DNA of 64,000 nt, from assembly GCA_965112155.1 (NCBI GenBank), contig OZ218105.1. One strand, 5' to 3'. Source of the DNA: Podarcis liolepis (Eukaryota). The notes under the pieces are model-generated. The model worked only from the letters and a program-made list of their open reading frames with translations, was not told the origin of the DNA and ran no database searches. The position numbers and the translations under genes were made by a program. Of this stretch, positions 40,140 through 50,600 are shown piece after piece; position 1 is the stretch's first letter; every line of letters starts with the position of its first letter.

Positions 40140-40830
40140 TGCATCAGTCATTTCCTGCATTCATCCTGCAACTGTTGGCTACTTGTGTATACTCCTCCTC
40201 TGTGATTTCCCCTTTCTTCCATTTCTTATACATGCCCTTCTTAACTTTTAACTCCCCTGTAAGCTCCTTATGCAGCCACACTGGTTTCCTTAGATGCCTC
40301 TCACTTTTCTTTCTTGTTAGAATCGTCTGCATTTGGGCCTTCAATACTTCACCTTTAAGAAACTCCCAAGCATCTTGGACTCCCTTCTCTTTGAGTATTT
40401 CTGACAATGGGTTCTCCTTTAGCTTTTTGAAACTGGCCTTCTTAAAGACCAGTGTGCATGTCTCACTGTACTGAGCTTTCCCATGGCTCTGTCCCATGAA
40501 ACCCAGGAGGGCATGATCACTTCCTCCCAAGGTTCCCAGTACTTCCACTTGGTTGATGAGTTCCTCCCTGATGGCAAGGACCAGGTTCAAGAAAGATAAA
40601 CCCCTTGATGCTTCTTCCACCTTATGGGAAATGAAATTGTCAGAGAGGTAGCAGAGGATTTTGTTGCTCCTTACATTCTTGGCAGAGTTTGAGTTCCAAC
40701 AGATAATCAGGGTAGTTGAAGTCTCCCATGACGCCTATATCTCTCCTTTTTGTTTGGTAATCTGCTCTAGGAATGCATCGTCCAAGTCTTCAATCAGTCT
40801 TGGAGGTCTGGATCCTCCATCACTGCTCCT
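40140..40830 (-). pseudogene. CR1 LINE ORF2 endonuclease/linker fragment
   Basis: MGDFNYP..., LNLVL..REELI..VEV.GTLGGSDH and KPVWL..EL...LK.KK.MYKKWK.G motifs, with frameshifts. Confidence 0.85.
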
Positions 40831-41016
40831 CATGGGAATAAATTCCACAATTTAGTGTGACAGGGAAACTCTTGTCAGCAGATATTTAATTGGAATCATT
40901 CTTGCTTTCTTTTAGATGTGTTTTAAAAACTGCATTGTTCAGACAGGCCTTTGTAAGTTCACATTTTTTACCAACCAGTTTTGATTGACAAGTTACTGAA
41001 GTTTTAGGAAAGCAAT

Positions 41017-41808
41017 TGTCAGAGCTGCTTGAAGATCCTAGCTCACAGAGGATCACGCTAGCCAGCGGTCATTAAGTAAAAGTCTTTATTGAATTACAGT
41101 TTCCATTCTCACGCTGCTGCGCGCAACTCTACGCCTAGTAGCTAGGTCGGCGAAGCTCCGTCTGAGTCTCCGCCCTGTGTGCACCAACTTAATATCCTAG
41201 CCTTGCTCCACCTTTTCCTCCTGACTGTCCTCCTCTGGGTCCCTCTACCCCCCGGGGCTTCTTCCTTCCGGGATTCTTCTGACGCTGACCCAGACCCTCC
41301 TGCCTCCTTGCGCCGGGCTTTAGGACCTGGCTCTCTTTCGGGGCTGCTTACTGCGCCGCCTTCCTCTGCATTTGAACTTGGCGCGCGCGCCCAACCTTCC
41401 ACTTTCCTCTCAACCGTTTCTTCGCTCCCCGATGGAGGTGTGGCCATCCCCGACTCATGTCCTCCCTCCTGTGGAGGTGTGGCCACTCCTGACTCATGTC
41501 CTCCCTCCTGTGGTGAGCTGCCAGCGCTTCCCCCCTGGCTCCCTTCCTCTTCCCTGCTTCCTGGCGGTGACGCTGGTCCCGATTTCCAGCTGCTCCCCCC
41601 TGAGTCCTCTCTGGCTCTGTCTTCCTGGGGTGCCCCCCTAGACTCCCCCCTTGCCCTCGCCACTGGTGCTCCTTTCTGTGAATCCTCTGATTCACTGGAA
41701 AGACTAGGAGATCTCGGGTCGTCGTCGTCACTCATCTTTTCTTCTGCCTCCTCCCCTTCGCTCTCTGTTTCCTCCCTTGCCCGTGCTTCTGCTCCTAAAC
41801 CCCTGACA
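41017..41808 (-). repeat. 3' LTR
   Basis: Copy of the 5' LTR, preceded on the minus strand by the polypurine tract. AATAAA at 41090-41085. Confidence 0.97.
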
Positions 41809-44800
41809 TCCATCCCCCCCTCGAAGCCCCCCATTCCCCCCTCCCCTCCTTCCGGTGCTGGAGCTGGGGGCTGCTGTTGCAAAGGGACGAACGTCAGGTA
41901 TCGGTCGCTTCCCGTGGCAGGCCTCCATCTGAAGTCTCCCGGGTCTTCCTCCCCGCTCTCGTCGACGACAGTCACCTCCGCTTCCATCTCTGTGCCGCCG
42001 TGCTCGAAACCAGGGTCGTCCCCGAAAACGTCCATGTCCGTCTCTCCCTCACTTCCTCCTGTCGGTGTTGCTCGTCCTGGGCCTTCCAGCCACCGTCTGC
42101 GCCACTGCTCCTCTGGCCTATCGTCCCACCAATACGAGGGTTCTGATGCAGATCCCGAGGGTGACCCCTCCGGGGAACGGACGTCTTGTGTCGGGTCCTC
42201 GTCCGAGTCGAACCCCCGGAAAGTGCTGGCCGAAAGTGTGGGCGTGAAAAGCCAGTCGTCAAAATATTCTGCTGGCATAGGTCTATGGGGAAAGAGGGCA
42301 TGAAACTCGTCTTTGAGGAGAGGTTCGTCCAAGGCGTAGCCCGGCACCCAGCTGTTCGCACTGGCCGGGGTGCCCTCCTTGGCGAGAAAGTATTCTACCC
42401 CCTCTTCCCCCCATCTGGAGTCCAAAATCTCAGTGACTTCGTTGATGCGCTCCTTCTGTGCCACTTCCGCGTGCCCTGTTCTGTCTCTGACCGGACTCGG
42501 CGCTGTTCCGGGTTCCTGGAACCTGTGCGGTGCCTTGTAGGGAGTGAGCACCGATCTGTGGAATACCGGATGCATTCTGGAACCCTCCGGAAGTGCCAGT
42601 CTGAAAGCTACCGGGTTGACCTGCTCTTCGACTTGGTAGGGCCCCAGTTGCTTATGCCCTAGTTTCTTCTTGGCCAACGACCTGGCCGGCACTGCGTGGG
42701 CTGCTAACCAAACCCAGTCTCCCACGTGGAGCTCTTCTCCAACCCTTCTGTGCTTGTCTGCTTGTACCTTGTATGCGTGCTTGGCCAGCTCCAGGCGGCG
42801 CCTCAGCTGATCGTGGACCTCCTGCAGCTCCGACGCGAACGCATCTGCTGTCTGCGGCTCCCCCTCCCCCATTCTTTCCAGTCCCGGGAAGGTTCTGGGG
42901 TGCCTCCCGTTGTTGGCGAAGAACGGCGTGACCCCCGTGGACACGTGCTTCGTGTTGTTGTAGGCGAACTCGGCAAGCGGTAGGTAATCCACCCACGTCG
43001 CAGGCTGTTGATTTGCATAACATCTCAGGTACTGCTGCATGATGGCATTGACCCGCTCCGCTTGCCCGTTGGTCTGCGGGTGTCTTGCCGACGCCAGGTT
43101 GATCTTGACGTTCAGGAAGCCCATCAGCTTCTGCCAGAAATTCGAGATGAACTGCCGCCCCCGGTCGGACAGAATAGACCGTGGCAGACCGTGAACCTTG
43201 AACACGTGGTCTATGAACAGTTTGGCGGTTTGCTCCGCCGTGGCCACCTTCGCACACGGAATGAAATGCGCCATCTTGGAAAACAGGTCCACCACCACCA
43301 GCACTGCCGTCTTGCCCCTTGAGCTGGGCAGATCCGTGACAAAGTCCAGGGCCACTCTCTCCCATGGTTCGAACGGTGTTTGCAGCGGTTCCAACAGTCC
43401 GGCCGGCGGTTTGTGCACTGGTTTGGCCCTCTGGCAGGTGTCGCACCTCGCCACGTAGTCTGCGACCTCCCCTCTCATTCCAGGCCACCAGAAATCCCTG
43501 GCTACTAATTCCACCGTCTTCTCCTTGCCAAAGTGCCCGGCCGTGGGCGCGTCGTGCAGCTGCTGCAGCACCTTGGCTCGAAGTTCGTCTCCCGGCACGT
43601 AGATGGCCCCTTTTCGGATGAGCAATCCATCTCGTAGCCGGAAACCGTCGGCCGCTGCCTTGCCCCTTTGCACCTCTGCCATCTTTGCTTGTGCGAAGGA
43701 GTCCTCCTGCAACGCACGTCGCACCGCCTCTAGGTCCACGGTCGCCGCGGCGCACGCCCACACTGCTGGTGCGAAGATGTGCATGGCGGCCGCTGGTGTT
43801 GCGTCCTCCAGATACTGTGGCTTACGGGAGAGGGCGTCTGCCATGATGTTGGTGTCCCCCGGGACATACTCTATTCGGAAGTCGAAGTTTGCAAAGAACT
43901 CAGCCCAACGTATCTGCCTCTGGTTCAGGAACTGTGCCGTGCGCCAGTGCTCTAGATTCTTGTGGTCCGTGCAAACCTGCACCGTGTGCTTGGCGCCGAT
44001 CAGAAAGTGCCTCCACGCCTTGAACGCTGCGTGAATGGCCAGCAACTCCCTGTCCCAGATGGTGTAGTTCTGTTCGGACTTGCTGAGCTTCCTGGAGTAA
44101 AACGCTCCCGGTCGCCACACCCCCTGCGGGTCTTTCTGCAACAGGACCGCCCCCACGGCTCTGTCCGAGGCGTCTGTCTCCACCCTCATCGGCTTGCTGG
44201 GGTTGACATGAAGCAGCTGCTCTTCCGACGCGAAGAGACGCTTGAGTGCCTGAAAGGACTGCTCCGCCTGCGCTGTCCAAACGAACTTCTTCTTCTTGGA
44301 GCTAAGCGTGTCAGTGATGGCCGCTGTCTGCATCGCGAAGCCCTTGATAAACTTGCGATAGAAGTTCGCAAAGCCGACAAACCGTTGGACCTCCTTCCGG
44401 TTGCGCGGACTCTTCCAATCCAACACCGCTCGAACCTTGGCGCTGTCCATGGCGAGCCCCTTGTCAGACAGCTTGTAGCCCAGAAAATCCACCTCCGGCA
44501 CGTCAAATTGGCACTTCTCCAGCTTGGCGTAGAGCCTATGTTGCTTTAGCCTGCTCAGCACTTCCTTGACGTGTCCGTCATGCTCCTGCTGCGACTCCGA
44601 AAAGACCAGGATGTCATCTAAGAAACAGACGCACGTCTTGTAGAGAAGTCCCGCCAACACGTGATGCATAAACGCTTGAAAAACGTGGGAGCCATTTTGC
44701 AATCCAAAAGGCATAACTCTATATTCGTAGGTCCCCAGTGGCGTGAACATGGCTGTCTTCCACTCATCTCCTTCCCGCATGCGAATGAGGTTGTACGCCC

Positions 44801-45749
44801 CCCGCAGGTCTAACTTGGTGAACACTTTTCCCTTCCGTACCTTAGCGAGGAGGTCGTCAATACGGGGCATGGGGAAGTCCGATGGCCTAGTCAGACTGTT
44901 CAAAATCCTGTAATCCACTACCAGTCTTTTCTGGGGCGTGTCCCGCTTCTTAACAAAGAATACGGGACTGCCCCCCACTGCCCTGGACTCCCGGATGAAG
45001 CCGCGTTGCAAATTATGGTCAATGAACTCTTTGAGTTCCTGCAGTTCGTCCTCTGACATGGAATACAGTTTCCCTTTAGGCAGCGCCGCCCCCGGCAGCA
45101 GGTCAATTTTGCAGTCATATGGTCTGTGAGGGGGTAGCCTGTCTGCCTCCTTCTCGCAGAAAACTTCCAAAAATTCAGCGTACTTGTGTGGAATCGCTTG
45201 CAGCGTGCCTAGCAGCAGCTGTGACTCCTCTTCCTCTCCTTCCTGCCTGGGCACGATGCAGTGTTCAGCACAAAAGGAAGAGCCGAAGGTCAGCTGCCTC
45301 TGGTACCAAGCCATCGCTGGGCTGTGCTTGTCCAGCCAACTCATGCCCAATACAATGGGCGTGTCAGATAGTCGAGTGACGTTGAAGCTGATGATTTCTC
45401 TGTGATTCCCAAGTCGCATCACCATTGGTGGCGTCTGCTTCACCACTTGCCCCCCGAGCAGCTCCCTGCCATCCACCGTGACAACCTGCAGGGGCAGTGT
45501 GGCCGGCAGCAACTGCACAGCGTGCCTGTCGACAAAGTCCTGCCCTATAAAGTCCGCATTGCTGCCTGAGTCAATGGTGATTGGCACGTCCATGGTGATT
45601 CCATTGGGCAGTTGGAGAGACGCTGTGAGCCTCACTACTGGTTTGGGCGGGAGGGGGTTCACGGGCTGTAAAATCGCTGGGGACTGCGTCACTAACACGT
45701 CTGGCTGGGCCCCAGTGCCTCTTCCTCCAGCCAGACAGCCTCGTTTCCC
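41142..45749 (-). CDS. pol: Pol (protease, RT, RNase H, integrase, chromodomain, long acidic tail), expressed as an approximately 1871-aa Gag-Pol by -1 frameshift
   Basis: Uninterrupted ORF (track 41142..45827). Protease IDSGS. RT RLVVDYR, KLDLRGAY, MPFGL, FLDD. RNase H ETDAS, ELLAI, TDHKNL, ADALSR. Integrase H-X6-H...CDTC, LDF, SDRG, QAERVN and GPY motif. Chromodomain-like EVTEILDSR...EYF...NSWVP. Confidence 0.96.
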   Translation of the reverse strand, partial: GKRGCLAGGRGTGAQPDVLVTQSPAILQPVNPLPPKPVVRLTASLQLPNGITMDVPITIDSGSNADFIGQDFVDRHAVQLLPATLPLQVVTVDGRELLGGQVVKQTPPMVMRLGNHREIISFNVTRLSDTPIVLGMSWLDKHSPAMAWYQRQLTFGSSFCAEHCIVPRQEGEEEESQLLLGTLQAIPHKYAEFLEVFCEKEADRLPPHRPYDCKIDLLPGAALPKGKLYSMSEDELQELKEFIDHNLQRGFIRESRAVGGSPVFFVKKRDTPQKRLVVDYRILNSLTRPSDFPMPRIDDLLAKVRKGKVFTKLDLRGAYNLIRMREGDEWKTAMFTPLGTYEYRVMPFGLQNGSHVFQAFMHHVLAGLLYKTCVCFLDDILVFSESQQEHDGHVKEVLSRLKQHRLYAKLEKCQFDVPEVDFLGYKLSDKGLAMDSAKVRAVLDWKSPRNRKEVQRFVGFANFYRKFIKGFAMQTAAITDTLSSKKKKFVWTAQAEQSFQALKRLFASEEQLLHVNPSKPMRVETDASDRAVGAVLLQKDPQGVWRPGAFYSRKLSKSEQNYTIWDRELLAIHAAFKAWRHFLIGAKHTVQVCTDHKNLEHWRTAQFLNQRQIRWAEFFANFDFRIEYVPGDTNIMADALSRKPQYLEDATPAAAMHIFAPAVWACAAATVDLEAVRRALQEDSFAQAKMAEVQRGKAAADGFRLRDGLLIRKGAIYVPGDELRAKVLQQLHDAPTAGHFGKEKTVELVARDFWWPGMRGEVADYVARCDTCQRAKPVHKPPAGLLEPLQTPFEPWERVALDFVTDLPSSRGKTAVLVVVDLFSKMAHFIPCAKVATAEQTAKLFIDHVFKVHGLPRSILSDRGRQFISNFWQKLMGFLNVKINLASARHPQTNGQAERVNAIMQQYLRCYANQQPATWVDYLPLAEFAYNNTKHVSTGVTPFFANNGRHPRTFPGLERMGEGEPQTADAFASELQEVHDQLRRRLELAKHAYKVQADKHRRVGEELHVGDWVWLAAHAVPARSLAKKKLGHKQLGPYQVEEQVNPVAFRLALPEGSRMHPVFHRSVLTPYKAPHRFQEPGTAPSPVRDRTGHAEVAQKERINEVTEILDSRWGEEGVEYFLAKEGTPASANSWVPGYALDEPLLKDEFHALFPHRPMPAEYFDDWLFTPTLSASTFRGFDSDEDPTQDVRSPEGSPSGSASEPSYWWDDRPEEQWRRRWLEGPGRATPTGGSEGETDMDVFGDDPGFEHGGTEMEAEVTVVDESGEEDPGDFRWRPATGSDRYLTFVPLQQQPPAPAPEGGEGGMGGFEGGMDVRGLGAEARAREETESEGEEAEEKMSDDDDPRSPSLSSESEDSQKGAPVARARGESRGAPQEDRAREDSGGSSWKSGPASPPGSREEEGSQGGSAGSSPQEGGHESGVATPPQEGGHESGMATPPSGSEETVERKVEGWARAPSSNAEEGGAVSSPEREPGPKARRKEAGGSGSASEESRKEEAPGGRGTQRRTVRRKRWSKARILSWCTQGGDSDGASPT
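41809..41823 (-). promoter_or_regulatory. Polypurine tract
   Basis: Minus strand GAGGGGGGGATGGA lies immediately before the TGTCAG of the 3' LTR. Confidence 0.9.
45677..45749 (-). promoter_or_regulatory. -1 ribosomal frameshift signal: G GGA AAC slippery heptamer plus predicted H-type pseudoknot
   Basis: GGGAAAC at 45749-45743 is in the gag frame (Q-G-N), and the -1 frame gives G-K-R-G-C-L of pol. 6-nt spacer. Perfect 10-bp stem GTCTGGCTGG/CCAGCCAGAC (45736-45727 with 45708-45699). Loop CTGGGG can pair with downstream CCCCAG (45682-45677). Confidence 0.9.
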
Positions 45750-46756
45750 TGCTGTGGTCCTCCTTGCTGTGTTGCTGCAGTCACCATTGCTGAGGCTGCA
45801 GTGAGCTTGTGGGGCCTCTGGGGACACTCTTTCGCCATATGCCCTGGCTCCTCACAGACGTAACACTTCCTGTTCCCTCTAGGAGGCTTCGCTTTCACTG
45901 CTGCTGGTGCTAGGGCTCTGGTTGCTGACTGAGCCCTTGCACCTCCCACCTCCATAGGTTCGGCTCCTCCTCCTGGCGGAGGCGTGGATTGCGCCCGCGC
46001 TGCTTCCCTGGGAAAGAAGGAGGGGCCCCCGGCTGGTTCGCGCCCTCCACGCCCTTCGTCCCTGTTCCACGGACGTCCTTCCAGCCTCACCCCCACTGCC
46101 AGTGCCCTCTGAACGACCTCCTGGGTGGTTCGGGGTCTCTCCCCCCTGGCGATCTCATCTTTAATCGAGTTATGCAGCCCCTCCCAAAAGAGGTCTCTTA
46201 CAGGAGCCGAATCTCTGTCCCATTCCAGGGCACTGACCAAGGCGAAAAAGCGGGCATGGTACTGCCTGACGCTGGCCCTCCCTTGTCTCAGCCCATGCAC
46301 CTCCTTCCGTGCAAGATCCACGTCAATACTTGATAAAAAACACCCATCCATCGCTTTAATAAAGGCATCTGCATTCTGTAGCGCCGGATCCTTATCTCTC
46401 CATAAATTGCGTAGCCATGCTCTCGCATCCCCATGCAGATGGGACATGATGAACCCCACTCTCTCTTGTTCATCTCTAAAGTCTTTATGCAGCAGTTGCA
46501 GTGCGCACAGTACGTCGGCTCTAAAGTTGGGATACTGTTGCAGGTTCCCATCGAAGTGAGAGACCAGCCCGCCTGTCCGTCTCGCCAACCCAATGCCCTC
46601 CTGCCGGGGTGCCTGCTTTGTCAGCACGTCTAACCTGACCTGGAGATCCCTGCAGGCTGCGGCTGCTTCCTCCTCCCTCTTCCTGGATGCTAGAGCCTCG
46701 GCGTTCAGTTGTGCCACCGCGTTTCTGAGTTCCTCTATCTGCTGCTCAGCCGTCAT
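45692..46756 (-). CDS. gag: Gag (354 aa): N-terminal coiled coil, retrotransposon capsid, CCHC zinc knuckle
   Basis: ATG-initiated ORF. Capsid-like motifs FDGN..., 'VGFIMSHLHGDARAW', 'LRQGRASVRQY..F', 'FWEGLHNSIKDE'. 'EPMEVG' motif and CX2CX4HX4C knuckle CYVCEEPGHMAKEC, as in sushi/PEG10-type Gag. Confidence 0.95.
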   Translation of the reverse strand: MTAEQQIEELRNAVAQLNAEALASRKREEEAAAACRDLQVRLDVLTKQAPRQEGIGLARRTGGLVSHFDGNLQQYPNFRADVLCALQLLHKDFRDEQERVGFIMSHLHGDARAWLRNLWRDKDPALQNADAFIKAMDGCFLSSIDVDLARKEVHGLRQGRASVRQYHARFFALVSALEWDRDSAPVRDLFWEGLHNSIKDEIARGERPRTTQEVVQRALAVGVRLEGRPWNRDEGRGGREPAGGPSFFPREAARAQSTPPPGGGAEPMEVGGARAQSATRALAPAAVKAKPPRGNRKCYVCEEPGHMAKECPQRPHKLTAASAMVTAATQQGGPQQGNEAVWLEEEALGPSQTC

Positions 46757-46833: not shown

Positions 46834-46844
46834 AGACGGAGCTT
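46834..46844 (-). promoter_or_regulatory. Non-tRNA primer-binding site (self-priming type)
   Basis: 2 nt after the 5' LTR the minus strand reads AAGCTCCGTCT, with no TGG. This is the exact complement of AGACGGAGCTT at 46993-46983 inside the LTR. Confidence 0.85.
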
Positions 46845-46846
46845 AC

Positions 46847-47638
46847 TGTCAGAGCTGCTTGAAGATCCTAGCTCACAGAGGATCACGCTAGCCAGCGGTC
46901 ATTAAGTAAAAGTCTTTATTGAATTACAGTTTCCATTCTCACGCTGCTGCGCGCAACTCTACGCCTAGTAGCTAGGTCGGCGAAGCTCCGTCTGAGTCTC
47001 CGCCCTGTGTGCACCAACTTAATATCCTAGCCTTGCTCCACCTTTTCCTCCTGACTGTCCTCCTCTGGGTCCCTCTACCCCCCGGGGCTTCTTCCTTCCG
47101 GGATTCTTCTGACGCTGACCCAGACCCTCCTGCCTCCTTGCGCCGGGCTTTAGGACCTGGCTCTCTTTCGGGGCTGCTTACTGCGCCGCCTTCCTCTGCA
47201 TTTGAACTTGGCGCGCGCGCCCAACCTTCCACTTTCCTCTCAACCGTTTCTTCGCTCCCCGATGGAGGTGTGGCCATCCCCGACTCATGTCCTCCCTCCT
47301 GTGGAGGTGTGGCCACTCCTGACTCATGTCCTCCCTCCTGTGGTGAGCTGCCAGCGCTTCCCCCCTGGCTCCCTTCCTCTTCCCTGCTTCCTGGCGGTGA
47401 CGCTGGTCCCGATTTCCAGCTGCTCCCCCCTGAGTCCTCTCTGGCTCTGTCTTCCTGGGGTGCCCCCCTAGACTCCCCCCTTGCCCTCGCCACTGGTGCT
47501 CCTTTCTGTGAATCCTCTGATTCACTGGAAAGACTAGGAGATCTCGGGTCGTCGTCGTCACTCATCTTTTCTTCTGCCTCCTCCCCTTCGCTCTCTGTTT
47601 CCTCCCTTGCCCGTGCTTCTGCTCCTAAACCCCTGACA
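46847..47638 (-). repeat. 5' LTR (U3 about 47638-46994; R/U5 about 46993-46847)
   Basis: Repeat of 41017-41808 at offset 5830. TG...CA ends with a 6-bp terminal inverted repeat. TATA-like ATATTAA at 47025-47019 and AATAAA at 46920-46915 (minus strand). Confidence 0.97.
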
Positions 47639-50600
47639 GCAATTAATGTTGTATTATAGTTTTATGCAGTACACCACCTTGCTATATTTCCTATGGAAAT
47701 AGGATTTATAAATATTTCAATAAACAAAAATAAATTAATGTACATGTAATCCAAGATGCATTACAATAATTTGACTTCATATCAGATGTGAAATCTTAAC
47801 AGGTTTTATTAGATATCTAGATGTATCCCAATGAAATAATTGCAAGGTATTCTCATTATGCTGAAGTCCAGCTATCCTTTATAAAATTGTTATAATTCTG
47901 GCAGGTAACAAACCTAATATTAAAAATAATAATGACGAACATGCAATAATTCCCTTGGGCTACCTGTATCTATAATATAAGAATATTCATAAATTAGAAT
48001 TCACCTATTACTGAAATCTGGTCCATGAAGAGGAATAAAAATGTCTATACAACTCACTACTAAAGTCATTTTCTCAGTTCAATTAACCTGAACACAATTT
48101 AAGGAAACAGAATAACTATTCCTGTGTTGGGCCACTAGGGGGAAGTAGCCATTATGATACTATTAAAAAGAATAAGAAATTATCTCAGATGCTTATTGTT
48201 TACCATGCCTAAGCCTTCTCTAGCTGTGTTGTTTTTATTTCATTTTATGAGCAACTAATTATCACTATTAAATCGCTGGTGCAATCTGTTAGCTTTTTAA
48301 AACCTGTAGTGTAAAAATTATTCCTTAAAGTTGAAATGAAAGCCTTTCCAGAGATCTTACTCCTTTTCTGAAAAGTGGAAAAGCTAATGCAGGAAGAAAG
48401 ATATTCTGTTGGATGAAACGAAGAATCATATTGTTATTGTTCTGTGAAAGGCTGATTTCCTATGCACGTAATAATATATCTGCTTAGATATAGTTAAAAA
48501 CTATGTATGGCTACCATGCTGTCATTAGCTATGCCTAGATAAGTTTCATTAACATTAATAGGGCTTATACATTATTAGCTAGGTTTCTGCAGTGGAAAGG
48601 AATGTTCAATCTTCATTTAACTATCTAGTATATGAACTGAATAAATGTGCACAAGAAGATTATAAAAGCAAGACTACACGTTAACATCTAACAATTGTAC
48701 AATCTATGCCCCATGTACACAAATAGTTGAGCTGTATATCTGCACAGTTATTCAGATGCAATGTGTATCTATATGCGCCACAGCTGAGCTATGCAAATTA
48801 ACAAGTGTACAGCACACTCTTTCACACAAACACTTGTACATGTTTAGAGGCAGCTTATACCTGCATTTGGTGTAACCTGATCTGTGAACAAGCCTTTCAT
48901 GATGTACAAATCAATCCAATGAACCTCTGCACTGATGTTTCCTGTTTCAATTGTGCCCTCTGTTTTTGTGTAACTGCAGGATTGGGTTCTTCCTCATTGC
49001 ACAGGATCATGTTGACTTTCTGAAACCCCAATAGTTGGTTCCCTTTTATTTTAATTGGGAAACATGTAGAAATAGGAAAGGAATTTGCATAGAGAGGGGG
49101 AGCCATTTCAGTTATTAACATCGTGCAGCTTGAAGTAATAGGATGAATAAAAACTGACCCCTCTTGGAATAAAAATTGTCCAGACTGTATATATGGTTCC
49201 AAAGCTTTACTAACAGAACTTTCTTCAAACAGGCACAAAAACAAATAATGTTACATTCAAATAGTTGCATAAAATCATATGCTTGTCTAAGCGTATGCTC
49301 AGCTTATTACAAATATAAAATTACTCCAAACAGACCTGAAATCAAAGGTCTTTCTCTCTGCACACATACCCCATTACAGCCTGAAACTGTTTTCTCTTCA
49401 GGAGATACATTAGCACACCTTTCTTCTACGGTGTCTTGAGAACAAAGACAACTCCCTCAAAATGGTGATATGCAACTGAATATGCCTCCCATGTGATCTA
49501 AAGTTAAACACCACATGAGAGAGCTACAGAGATAAATCCAATTAATTATCAACCTATTAGGTGCTCAGAGAGCTTCACTTCGCTTCAGTGGAAATTTCCC
49601 TAATGTTCCCTTTGGCAATGCACATTCAGAGTTATTTTCCATTTTAATGTATAATTAAGCAATTATACATAACAGGAGCTTCTTGTACTATATAGAAGTG
49701 TTTGTAAATTGGTCTCATAGAATGTTAACCAAAGACAGAACAAGCAGAAAAGCAGTGGGGGTTTTTTTTGGGGGGGAGAGGGGTACAGCAACTAAAAATG
49801 AGATAACACACACACTTTTCTTAACAGCAACCAATCAGCACTACAAAAGAAGTAGGCTCTGGACCCTTCAAGGAAACTGTCAAATATTATGTTTATTATA
49901 ACTAAAACTTTTTAGTTAAACATTTTTGGCTCCTACCTTTCTCAGTAATAGACCCGGGATTTCAAAGGAATAGTGTGAGCCAAAGTGACTCATGATGACA
50001 TAATTCTAAAGAATGTGATGTGTGCAAGATAGGCTTTTAAAAAATGAAGAAAAGCAATGGCTAGATAGAAATTGTGTTTGTTTTCCAAATTAAACCCACT
50101 GAGATCCAAAGAGAGACGCTCTCTCTCTCTTCTAATATCTCTGGATTTGATGTTTCCTCTATAGCAAGGAAGGGGAACTTGTGGTCCACCAGATTTTGCT
50201 GCACTACTACTCCCACCACCCCAAGCATGGTTGGACCTGACAGGGGATGGAGTCCAATATTCTCTACAAATCTACTGCTTCCCCATTGTTAGACCTGACC
50301 AAAATATTGACCATAATACCCTGTAGACTTAAAGGGGAAGACAAAACTTAGTCTGCAATCATATATTGACTTGCCTGGGAGTAAGTCGGTGAACTCAGTG
50401 GGGCTTACTTTTGAGTAATCATGGATATGACTAAACTGGTAATATCTGTGTAGCCTCTGTGTGTGTGTCATACACCTGCCATATTCCTCAGAATTAATCC
50501 ATCCTGAGGCATTTTTAGAATTGTAACCGTCACTTACAGTGTACATTTGAAATCTGAACTGTGCTACTGAGGGAGGTGAAAGCTGAAACATTTAACTAAA

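Follow-up and report, generated by a model that had tools for sequence, protein, structure and literature searches.

A selected pol frame runs into the 3' LTR of a lizard chromovirus whose young copies are enriched near chromosome ends

The window analyzed here, a 64,000-nucleotide stretch of the Podarcis liolepis genome (contig OZ218105.1 of assembly GCA_965112155.1), carries on its minus strand, at 47638-41017, a full long terminal repeat (LTR) retrotransposon in which both LTRs, gag and pol are present. The 5' and 3' LTRs, 792 bp each with the ends TGTCAG..CTGACA, are 100% identical. Pfam domains were found for gag, a CCHC knuckle, protease, reverse transcriptase (RT), RNase H, the zinc finger and core of integrase, and a Tf2-type SH3 domain. 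The TG..CA LTR ends, the 5-bp target duplication and the order of gag followed by protease, RT, RNase H and then integrase are those of a Ty3/Gypsy chromovirus, and judged by its sequence the element is an intact, young, self-priming member of the Tf1/Sushi type. Its pol frame continues behind the chromodomain, crosses the polypurine tract (PPT) and the whole of U3, and ends within the 3' LTR. The features of the element, in window positions, are as follows.

41012-41016, minus strand: target-site duplication ATTGC (5 bp) flanking the element; second copy at 47639-47643
46847-47638, minus strand: 5' LTR, 792 bp, from sequence comparison with the 3' LTR
47019-47024, minus strand: TATTAA, a putative TATA-like box at -31 from the predicted transcription start
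46983-46993, minus strand: 11-nt self-primer, the probable RNA 5' end and start of R, from complementarity to the primer-binding site (PBS) as well as co-variation
46834-46844, minus strand: 11-nt segment next to the 5' LTR, on its internal side
45692-46756, minus strand: gag, with a capsid-like domain and CCHC knuckle, from the open reading frame (ORF) and Pfam
45743-45749, minus strand: GGGAAAC, read from the sequence as the likely -1 frameshift site linking gag and pol, which we take to resemble the PEG10 frameshift site
41142-45851, minus strand: pol frame, with protease, RT, RNase H, integrase zinc finger and core, SH3 domain, chromodomain and tail
42288-42443, minus strand: chromodomain without the aromatic cage residues, from alignment and predicted fold
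42210-42266, minus strand: helix, 8-residue S/T linker and FxGF motif, similar to a TND-interacting motif (TIM) as defined in PMC9987994
41809-42290, minus strand: acidic pre-LTR part of the tail, about 160 amino acids with aromatic islands, its end crossing the PPT
41809-41832, minus strand: PPT, read in frame as Gly/Glu-rich codons
41017-41808, minus strand: 3' LTR, 792 bp, from sequence comparison with the 5' LTR
41142-41808, minus strand: LTR-coded part of the tail, 222 codons, comprising all of U3 and 22 nt of R
41211-41234, minus strand: basic cluster, a likely nuclear localization signal (NLS)
41085-41090, minus strand: polyadenylation signal AATAAA

The pol frame measures 1569 codons from stop to stop, from 45851 to the TAG at 41144-41142 on the minus strand. 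As the original prediction, made from the letters of the window, had claimed, it stays open behind the chromodomain through the PPT and through 667 of the 792 bp of the 3' LTR (41808-41142, 222 codons), and its stop lies shortly before AATAAA, at a measured distance of 52 nt (AATAAA starting at 41090). The predicted length of about 380 amino acids for the tail was also accurate, at 382, but the description of this tail as LTR-encoded holds for 222 residues only: some 160 come from codons ahead of the LTR, and the four aromatic islands all precede the PPT. These islands, the basic end and every other motif that had been quoted were found in the translation, and the residues said to be abundant in the tail are so: G makes up 14.9% of it, E 13.9%, S 12.3%, P 9.7% and D 6.8%, with R at 8.9%. 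The remaining two sense frames of the LTR contain 13 and 8 stops, and the pol frame was free of stops by chance in 26 of 3000 dinucleotide shuffles of the LTR-coded stretch; the comparative tests described below argue against chance far more strongly than these shuffles. There is also a 385-codon antisense frame at 41146-42303 (plus strand), which has no early ATG; being open in 6 of 18 copies, it was dismissed as shadowing the sense frame.

The tail had no family match in a Pfam search and no usable match in a protein atlas search, and its single-sequence fold was uninformative (mean pLDDT 43). UniRef holds tail-bearing proteins under a generic name, and the five matches to the tail are predictions from P. 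muralis at 55-79% identity. Contigs from three sequencing runs presumed to be RNA, and from one other run, cover the element, although start, strand and level cannot be read from them.

The extension of pol into R, likewise part of the prediction, is backed by the way in which the element appears to prime its reverse transcription. Eleven nucleotides of the PBS are complementary to LTR positions 646-656, of which the 3' LTR copy starts at 41163; primer and PBS change in concert, occurring in four versions among full-length copies of the window family; and all-AT hexamers in the window's U3 are found only at -31/-32 from the primer. On these three grounds, the most likely start of R is 41163, which puts the end of pol 22 nt into R. 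Pairing of the first 11 nt of the RNA with the PBS, found here with an RNA 5' end predicted from sequence, is the self-priming mechanism described for Tf1 (PMC7175516) and given as a trait of the Tf1/Sushi group (PMC6317226); the LTR motif of Sushi also has the ends TGTCA..TGACA (PMC3601003). The TATA-like box of the 3' LTR (41194-41189, decoded as Ile-Leu) and its self-primer are both translated as pol codons. The suggestion that U3 serves as promoter and coding sequence at once is thus supported, both by these signals lying inside codons and by frame-specific selection.

This selection was measured in a protein-guided alignment of copies selected as open (19 chosen, of which one, L042, was dropped since it has no anchor motif). 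Over 55 pairs of 11 copies, dN/dS was 0.06 in the chromodomain, 0.31 in the pre-PPT tail and 0.27 in U3, compared with 1.52 and 0.77 when U3 was read in the shifted frames, so that the ratio below 1 proposed as a test in the original prediction was observed; for close pairs it was 0.19-0.21 in U3, with bootstrap intervals below 0.4. An excess of third-position changes in the pol frame extends across 190 codons upstream of the TATA-like box and primer. Conservation of the last tail residues may be at the DNA level, because they coincide with these two signals. In 18 open copies the stop always falls in one column, as TAG (9), TAA (6) or TGA (3).

Because the alignment was protein-guided and its copies had been chosen as open, we repeated the test, blind to frame, on 173 LTR copies, many of them solo (5 partial copies of 178 were left out). 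A stop was created by 21 of the 728 private variants, compared with 2 of the 510 that were shared (P = 0.0009), and silent changes were commoner among shared than among private variants. Modal U3 lengths were 609, 636, 645, 648 and 654, all multiples of three, with one group tied between 635, 636 and 638, and a multiple-of-three modal length was retained in 112 of 153 copies. The tail is a protein extension under purifying selection that is specific to the pol frame.

The window family is young and abundant. The 150 young copies considered below are the best 150 of 3958 candidate places, all matching a 167-residue query exactly, and 120 of these best 150 have the identical 1569-codon frame; other subfamilies have frames of 1520, 1556, 1562 and 1566 codons. 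Among full-length copies fetched for their long frames, 13 of 20 are open to the common end point and 7 are broken earlier; among more diverged loci, 10 of 30 are open to that point. Specific to the window's subfamily is an in-frame 39-nt tandem duplication in U3 (window 41433-41509 and 47263-47339), which adds 13 residues.

The same genome contains a sister family of like design, its identity to the window family being about 40-45% over the SH3 domain and chromodomain; the design is therefore older than the window family. Its pol enters a 435-bp LTR in the same phase for about 110 codons with a basic cluster at the end, and stops 22 nt after its own self-primer, which co-varies with the PBS in two versions; a T-rich hexamer lies at the same distance upstream of the primer as the AT hexamers of the window. 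The dN/dS of its LTR-coded part is 0.42, versus 1.06 and 0.87 in the shifted frames. The codon at the PPT/LTR border is GTG in the sister family and ATG in most but not all copies of the window family. Further afield, named nearest proteins in our searches were chromovirus proteins of squamates, amphibians and fish. In those of Rhineura and Vipera the tails are shorter, acidic and basic at the end, and may also overlap the LTRs; in fish-like chromovirus proteins of the databases the frame appears to extend about 20 codons past the PPT; and the median tail of 104 database relatives with a recognizable chromodomain is 36 amino acids.

The chromodomain preceding the tail is well modeled (pLDDT above 90 across the domain), its best PDB matches being chromodomains of HP1, CBX and CDYL (rmsd 1.0-1.3 Å, E 0.004-0.01), and Pfam Chromo matched it in the sister family but not in the window's protein. 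At the three positions of the cage it has N, K and T, whereas aromatic residues stand there in 50, 52 and 47 of 52 relatives; the three aromatic residues that define Group I chromodomains, readers of H3K9me, are absent, and the domain is likely unable to read methyl-lysine in the usual way. Behind it lie a helix (predicted at moderate confidence), an 8-residue linker rich in S/T, and an FxGF motif retained in 37 of 38 sequence variants, in which x is free (R, Q or H). The sister family has two FxGF motifs with acidic linkers, and the number of such motifs expected from composition is 0.03. The TIM bound by LEDGF/HRP2, proteins that read H3K36me2/3, is described as a short helix, an acidic or S/T linker of 8-16 residues and FxGF (PMC9987994). 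The segment fits this description as a sequence match, with the layout seen in KMT2A, JPO2 and IWS1; it differs from these in standing on a retrotransposon integrase and in a linker that is acidic only if phosphorylated. A contact of the segment with LEDGF/HRP2 is a candidate that we consider possible but more doubtful than not. Complex prediction with a 36-residue FxGF peptide and the P. muralis LEDGF domain, run without alignments or folded controls, scored 0.01 and is evidence neither way; an exon of the host has 100% identity to PSIP1 of P. muralis. Our literature search returned no paper on an FxGF motif or TIM in an LTR retrotransposon.

Young copies of the window family lie near contig ends far more often than expected: 53 of 150 are within 500 kb of an end (2.0 expected), and of the 106 on the 13 contigs whose satellite end is known, 48 are found at that end and 1 at the opposite one (0.72 expected for each). 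Samples were taken at a distance of 100 kb from either end of the 20 large contigs, with an additional one at 400 kb on contig C5. On 12 contigs, one sampled end consists to 81-99% of the element and a 509-bp satellite, which is absent at the other end; on contigs C3, C17 and C21 this satellite is near the contig start too. A continuous 120 kb of contig C9 is 86% element and 13% satellite, and its copies, which lie in both orientations, belong to several subfamilies and have different target duplications, are therefore separate insertions. Overall, the family occupies about 85% of a 250-350 kb satellite domain at one end of most chromosomes. With an LTR-based query, 17 of 82 elements lay close to ends, versus 0.70 expected; since 65 of the 82 still have paired LTRs, solo-LTR loss in the arms does not explain the bias. 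The family thus resembles centrophilic retrotransposons in that young, independent insertions concentrate in one satellite domain per chromosome. Because there is one such domain per chromosome and lacertid chromosomes are described as acrocentric, with telomere-like repeats at their centromeres (PMC7290949), the terminal domain is likely the centromere or its immediate flank, and would presumably correspond to the CENP-A centromere.

The 509-bp satellite, a candidate centromeric satellite, has chromosome-specific variants and is confined to the terminal 250-350 kb, for example at C13:60.48-60.69 Mb, C14:58.66-58.90 Mb, C15:54.02-54.19 Mb and C16:46.72-46.95 Mb; it also occurs in sequences L190 (192-1911) and L179, and forms a pure higher-order array at the start of C21. 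Among 10-kb stretches from chromosome ends (L171-L190), 10 of 19 hold at least 4.9 kb of the element. A 185-bp satellite is another candidate centromeric or pericentromeric repeat, with large unplaced arrays (L174 on C10 and the small contigs C117, C154, C167, C182 and C194) and one young element copy within it (L030, C1:124.0 Mb). We rejected it as the host of the element clusters.

Two subfamilies differ in what flanks their near-terminal copies. For 20 copies of the window type the flanks are satellite in 14, element in 2, other DNA in 3 and undetermined in 1, with none telomeric; for 20 copies of the 1520-codon type, of which 18 lie within 500 kb of an end and 2 within 1 Mb, they are telomeric in 12, satellite in 1, element in 1, other in 5 and undetermined in 1, with 7 of the telomeric flanks called by script and 5 read from printed junctions. 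Identity between the two types amounts to 82-92% for protease, RT, RNase H, integrase core, SH3 domain and chromodomain, versus 59% and 48% for the tail's two halves. This association of tail and target is a correlation between two lineages, short of proof. A subfamily starting TGTCATGGG looked strictly telomeric at first (5 of 5) and was rejected as such, since most of its 30 best LTR matches are dispersed solo LTRs and 8 of the 30 adjoin telomeric repeats. Insertions into telomeric repeats are mostly in one CTAAC/GTTAG register, and 45 distinct target duplications (from L001-L170) show a symmetric bias, T being rare at position 1 (1/45) and A at position 5 (2/45). At two loci (L074 and L093; C5:265-273 kb and C8:90.25 Mb) an element or solo LTR lies between telomeric repeats of opposite orientation, a layout suggesting that copies inserted in opposite directions recombined within telomere arrays.

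We propose that the selected, likely disordered 382-residue tail stays on the integrase as a chromatin tether and import signal, biasing insertion toward the probably centromeric satellite domain, and assign this reading a probability of roughly 0.55. Gag-Pol would be produced through the -1 frameshift, and the protease would free integrase with the tail attached; the basic end would then carry the integrase into the nucleus as an NLS, and short motifs in the disordered tail would tether it to chromosome-end chromatin in place of the lost cage. The tail, rather than another part of the protein, would choose the target. The original prediction had envisaged an accessory module, fused to or cleaved from integrase, that acts as a tether, NLS, acidic activator or histone-chaperone mimic: a selected extension fused to integrase is supported, and tether plus NLS fits best, while the activator and the chaperone mimic gained no specific support. 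Similarity of the basic end to CENP-C or to shelterin-binding motifs was also weighed and discarded, being too slight. A wider proposal, which we advance tentatively and think less likely than the alternative to it, is that the element is an independently evolved vertebrate counterpart of plant centromeric retrotransposons, which makes up about 85% of the lizard's centromeres and in which the methyl-lysine cage was replaced by an LTR-coded tail that chooses centromeric satellite or telomeric repeats according to subfamily and also carries a host-type FxGF tether.

Several observations weigh against the main proposal. Most young copies (97/150) lie elsewhere, the window's own copy being mid-arm, and in sparse samples the 509-bp satellite was not seen on 5 of the 20 large contigs (C1, C2, C12, C19 and C20). 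The flank contrast rests on 20 + 20 copies selected as near ends, and three telomeric copies on C16 look like one duplicated insertion; nor does it single out the tail, because the subfamilies also differ by 8-18% in the remaining pol and in their LTR ends. In the sister family, which shares the design and has two FxGF motifs, 3 of 32 copies are near ends versus 15 of 28 older copies of the window family (C20 and small contigs left out), the sister family's copies in this comparison being old. Reading of H3K36me2/3 by LEDGF/HRP2 does not itself account for a satellite preference. U3 indels, which had been expected to come in multiples of three, do so in the modal lengths but not among shared events in the 173 LTR copies (13 not multiples of three, mostly in G runs, versus 5 in frame); G-run slips recur, so that these indels give no clean signal. 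In nine older copies, G runs located at the PPT or before it are contracted by 1-2 nt, with an identical pair of contractions in four of the nine, which may reflect slippage, read error, duplication on C20 or a tail-truncated lineage moved in trans.

As the main alternative, the tail could be a real protein serving nuclear import, particle assembly or solubility, while the pile-up at ends is caused by the core of integrase, the degenerate chromodomain, the target DNA, chromatin accessibility or a higher survival of insertions at these sites. This we consider unlikely, though not very much so: a low-complexity tail that tolerates large in-frame indels and evolves at a dN/dS of 0.27-0.31, far above that of the chromodomain, would suit such a role, the weak end enrichment of the sister family agrees with it, and the telomeric repeat fits the existing base preference of the target duplications. 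Survival alone, however, is unlikely to yield a 27- to 67-fold enrichment among copies identical over the query, the LTR-based query shows the same bias with most LTRs paired, and subfamilies with 90-92% identical integrase core and chromodomain favor different flanks. It is improbable that the main job is general chromatin access through an LEDGF/HRP2 tether, as in lentiviral integrase, the LTR-coded part being an NLS-bearing spacer. The near-universal FxGF, its doubling in the sister family, its low expected number, the helix predicted before it and its fit to the TIM description all speak for this; but the motif precedes the PPT and is nearly invariant between subfamilies with different flanks, a tether to transcribed chromatin predicts insertions in gene bodies rather than in satellite or telomere arrays, and selection on the 222 LTR codons would be left unexplained.

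Retroviral nef, sag and bel, with which the frame had originally been compared, have coding sequence overlapping U3 and are separate genes expressed from their own RNAs. Release or separate synthesis of the LTR-coded part as an accessory protein of this kind, an activator or an anti-silencing factor, is very improbable here. The sequence is acidic and S/T-rich with a basic end, and an ATG stands at the PPT/LTR border in most copies of the window family; yet the LTR-coded frame is the end of pol, with which it is continuous in both families, the border ATG is not conserved (GTG in the sister family, non-ATG in some window-family copies), and the tail matches no Pfam family. Finally, the open frame might be a by-product of a purine-rich, T-poor LTR (12% T) and of selection on promoter DNA, in line with the overlap of the last conserved residues with the TATA-like box and primer. 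We give this hardly any credence: it is already contradicted by the stop column, in which TAG, TAA and TGA interchange, by the frame-specific dN/dS and third-position excess over the 190 codons upstream of those signals and by the frame-blind LTR variants, and also by the modal U3 lengths and by the antisense frame being open in just a third of copies.

A more fitting comparison than these retroviral genes is CRM. The original premise that gypsy pol normally ends at or before the PPT needs correction, as chromovirus pol frames entering the 3' LTR are described both for plant CRM group A, in which the LTR codes the centromere-targeting CR motif (PMC3059260), and for Beta Bingo families (PMC3605345). 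CRM group A, as portrayed there, shares with the window element its chromovirus affiliation, pol entering the 3' LTR, loss of canonical chromodomain function and accumulation in a satellite domain. It is a plant lineage, however, with a tRNA-Met PBS and with outright loss of the chromodomain, reported to have accompanied gain of the CR motif (PMC6317226); the window element has a PBS that pairs with its own LTR and keeps a conserved chromodomain, and is therefore CRM-like but not a CRM member, the centromeric identity of its domain being a probable one. Compared with the Tf1/Sushi group (Tf1, Sushi-ichi, Amn-ichi/ni/san; V-clade), it has the same domain order, SH3 domain and chromodomain, 11-nt self-priming and LTR ends, but lacks the cage and has a 382-residue selected tail crossing all of U3 into R. 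Integrase's C-terminal region, as proposed here, is described as setting centromere versus arm insertion in Tal1/ALE, centrophilic Copia elements of Arabidopsis (PMC11735389); there it is an internal, non-LTR-coded integrase of a Ty1/Copia element and was shown by experiment, whereas the evidence for the window element is correlative. The latter is unusual in how long its tail is, in that U3 is crossed in full and in its link to targeting of chromosome ends, and it is likely a vertebrate parallel to plant centromeric retrotransposons, convergent with CRM.

How retrotransposons find centromeres is described as largely open and as worked out in plants only (PMC11735389). Chordate centromere arrays have a transposon content of about 7% according to a 2026 centromere atlas (10.64898/2026.09.17.752431), the main text of which names no lizard, compared with 86% of one retrotransposon family in the domain sampled here. 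If the terminal domain is the centromere, lacertids would provide a vertebrate example of a centromere dominated by a transposon, in which the element is young and its natural subfamilies differ in tail and target; if FxGF binds LEDGF/HRP2, there would be a retrotransposon parallel to lentiviral tethering. A literature search, with Repbase and Dfam outside it, gave no description of the window family or its tail, of the terminal domains or of lacertid centromeric retrotransposons. The triple use of one LTR sequence as promoter, self-primer and protein constrains LTR evolution, and annotation as LTR only conceals a selected protein region.

Contig C20, which may be akin to a non-recombining W chromosome, carries 58 of 90 scored sister-family copies and, for the window family, 30 of the first 60 older ones. 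Tandem elements with common LTRs occur at C1:139.387-139.405 Mb, C4:35.20-35.22 Mb and C9:78.71-78.73 Mb. In the window itself, the element's neighbor at 40144-41011 is a decayed LINE-like remnant, presumably CR1-like, with a 196-codon frame that has a weak Pfam match to DUF6822 only.

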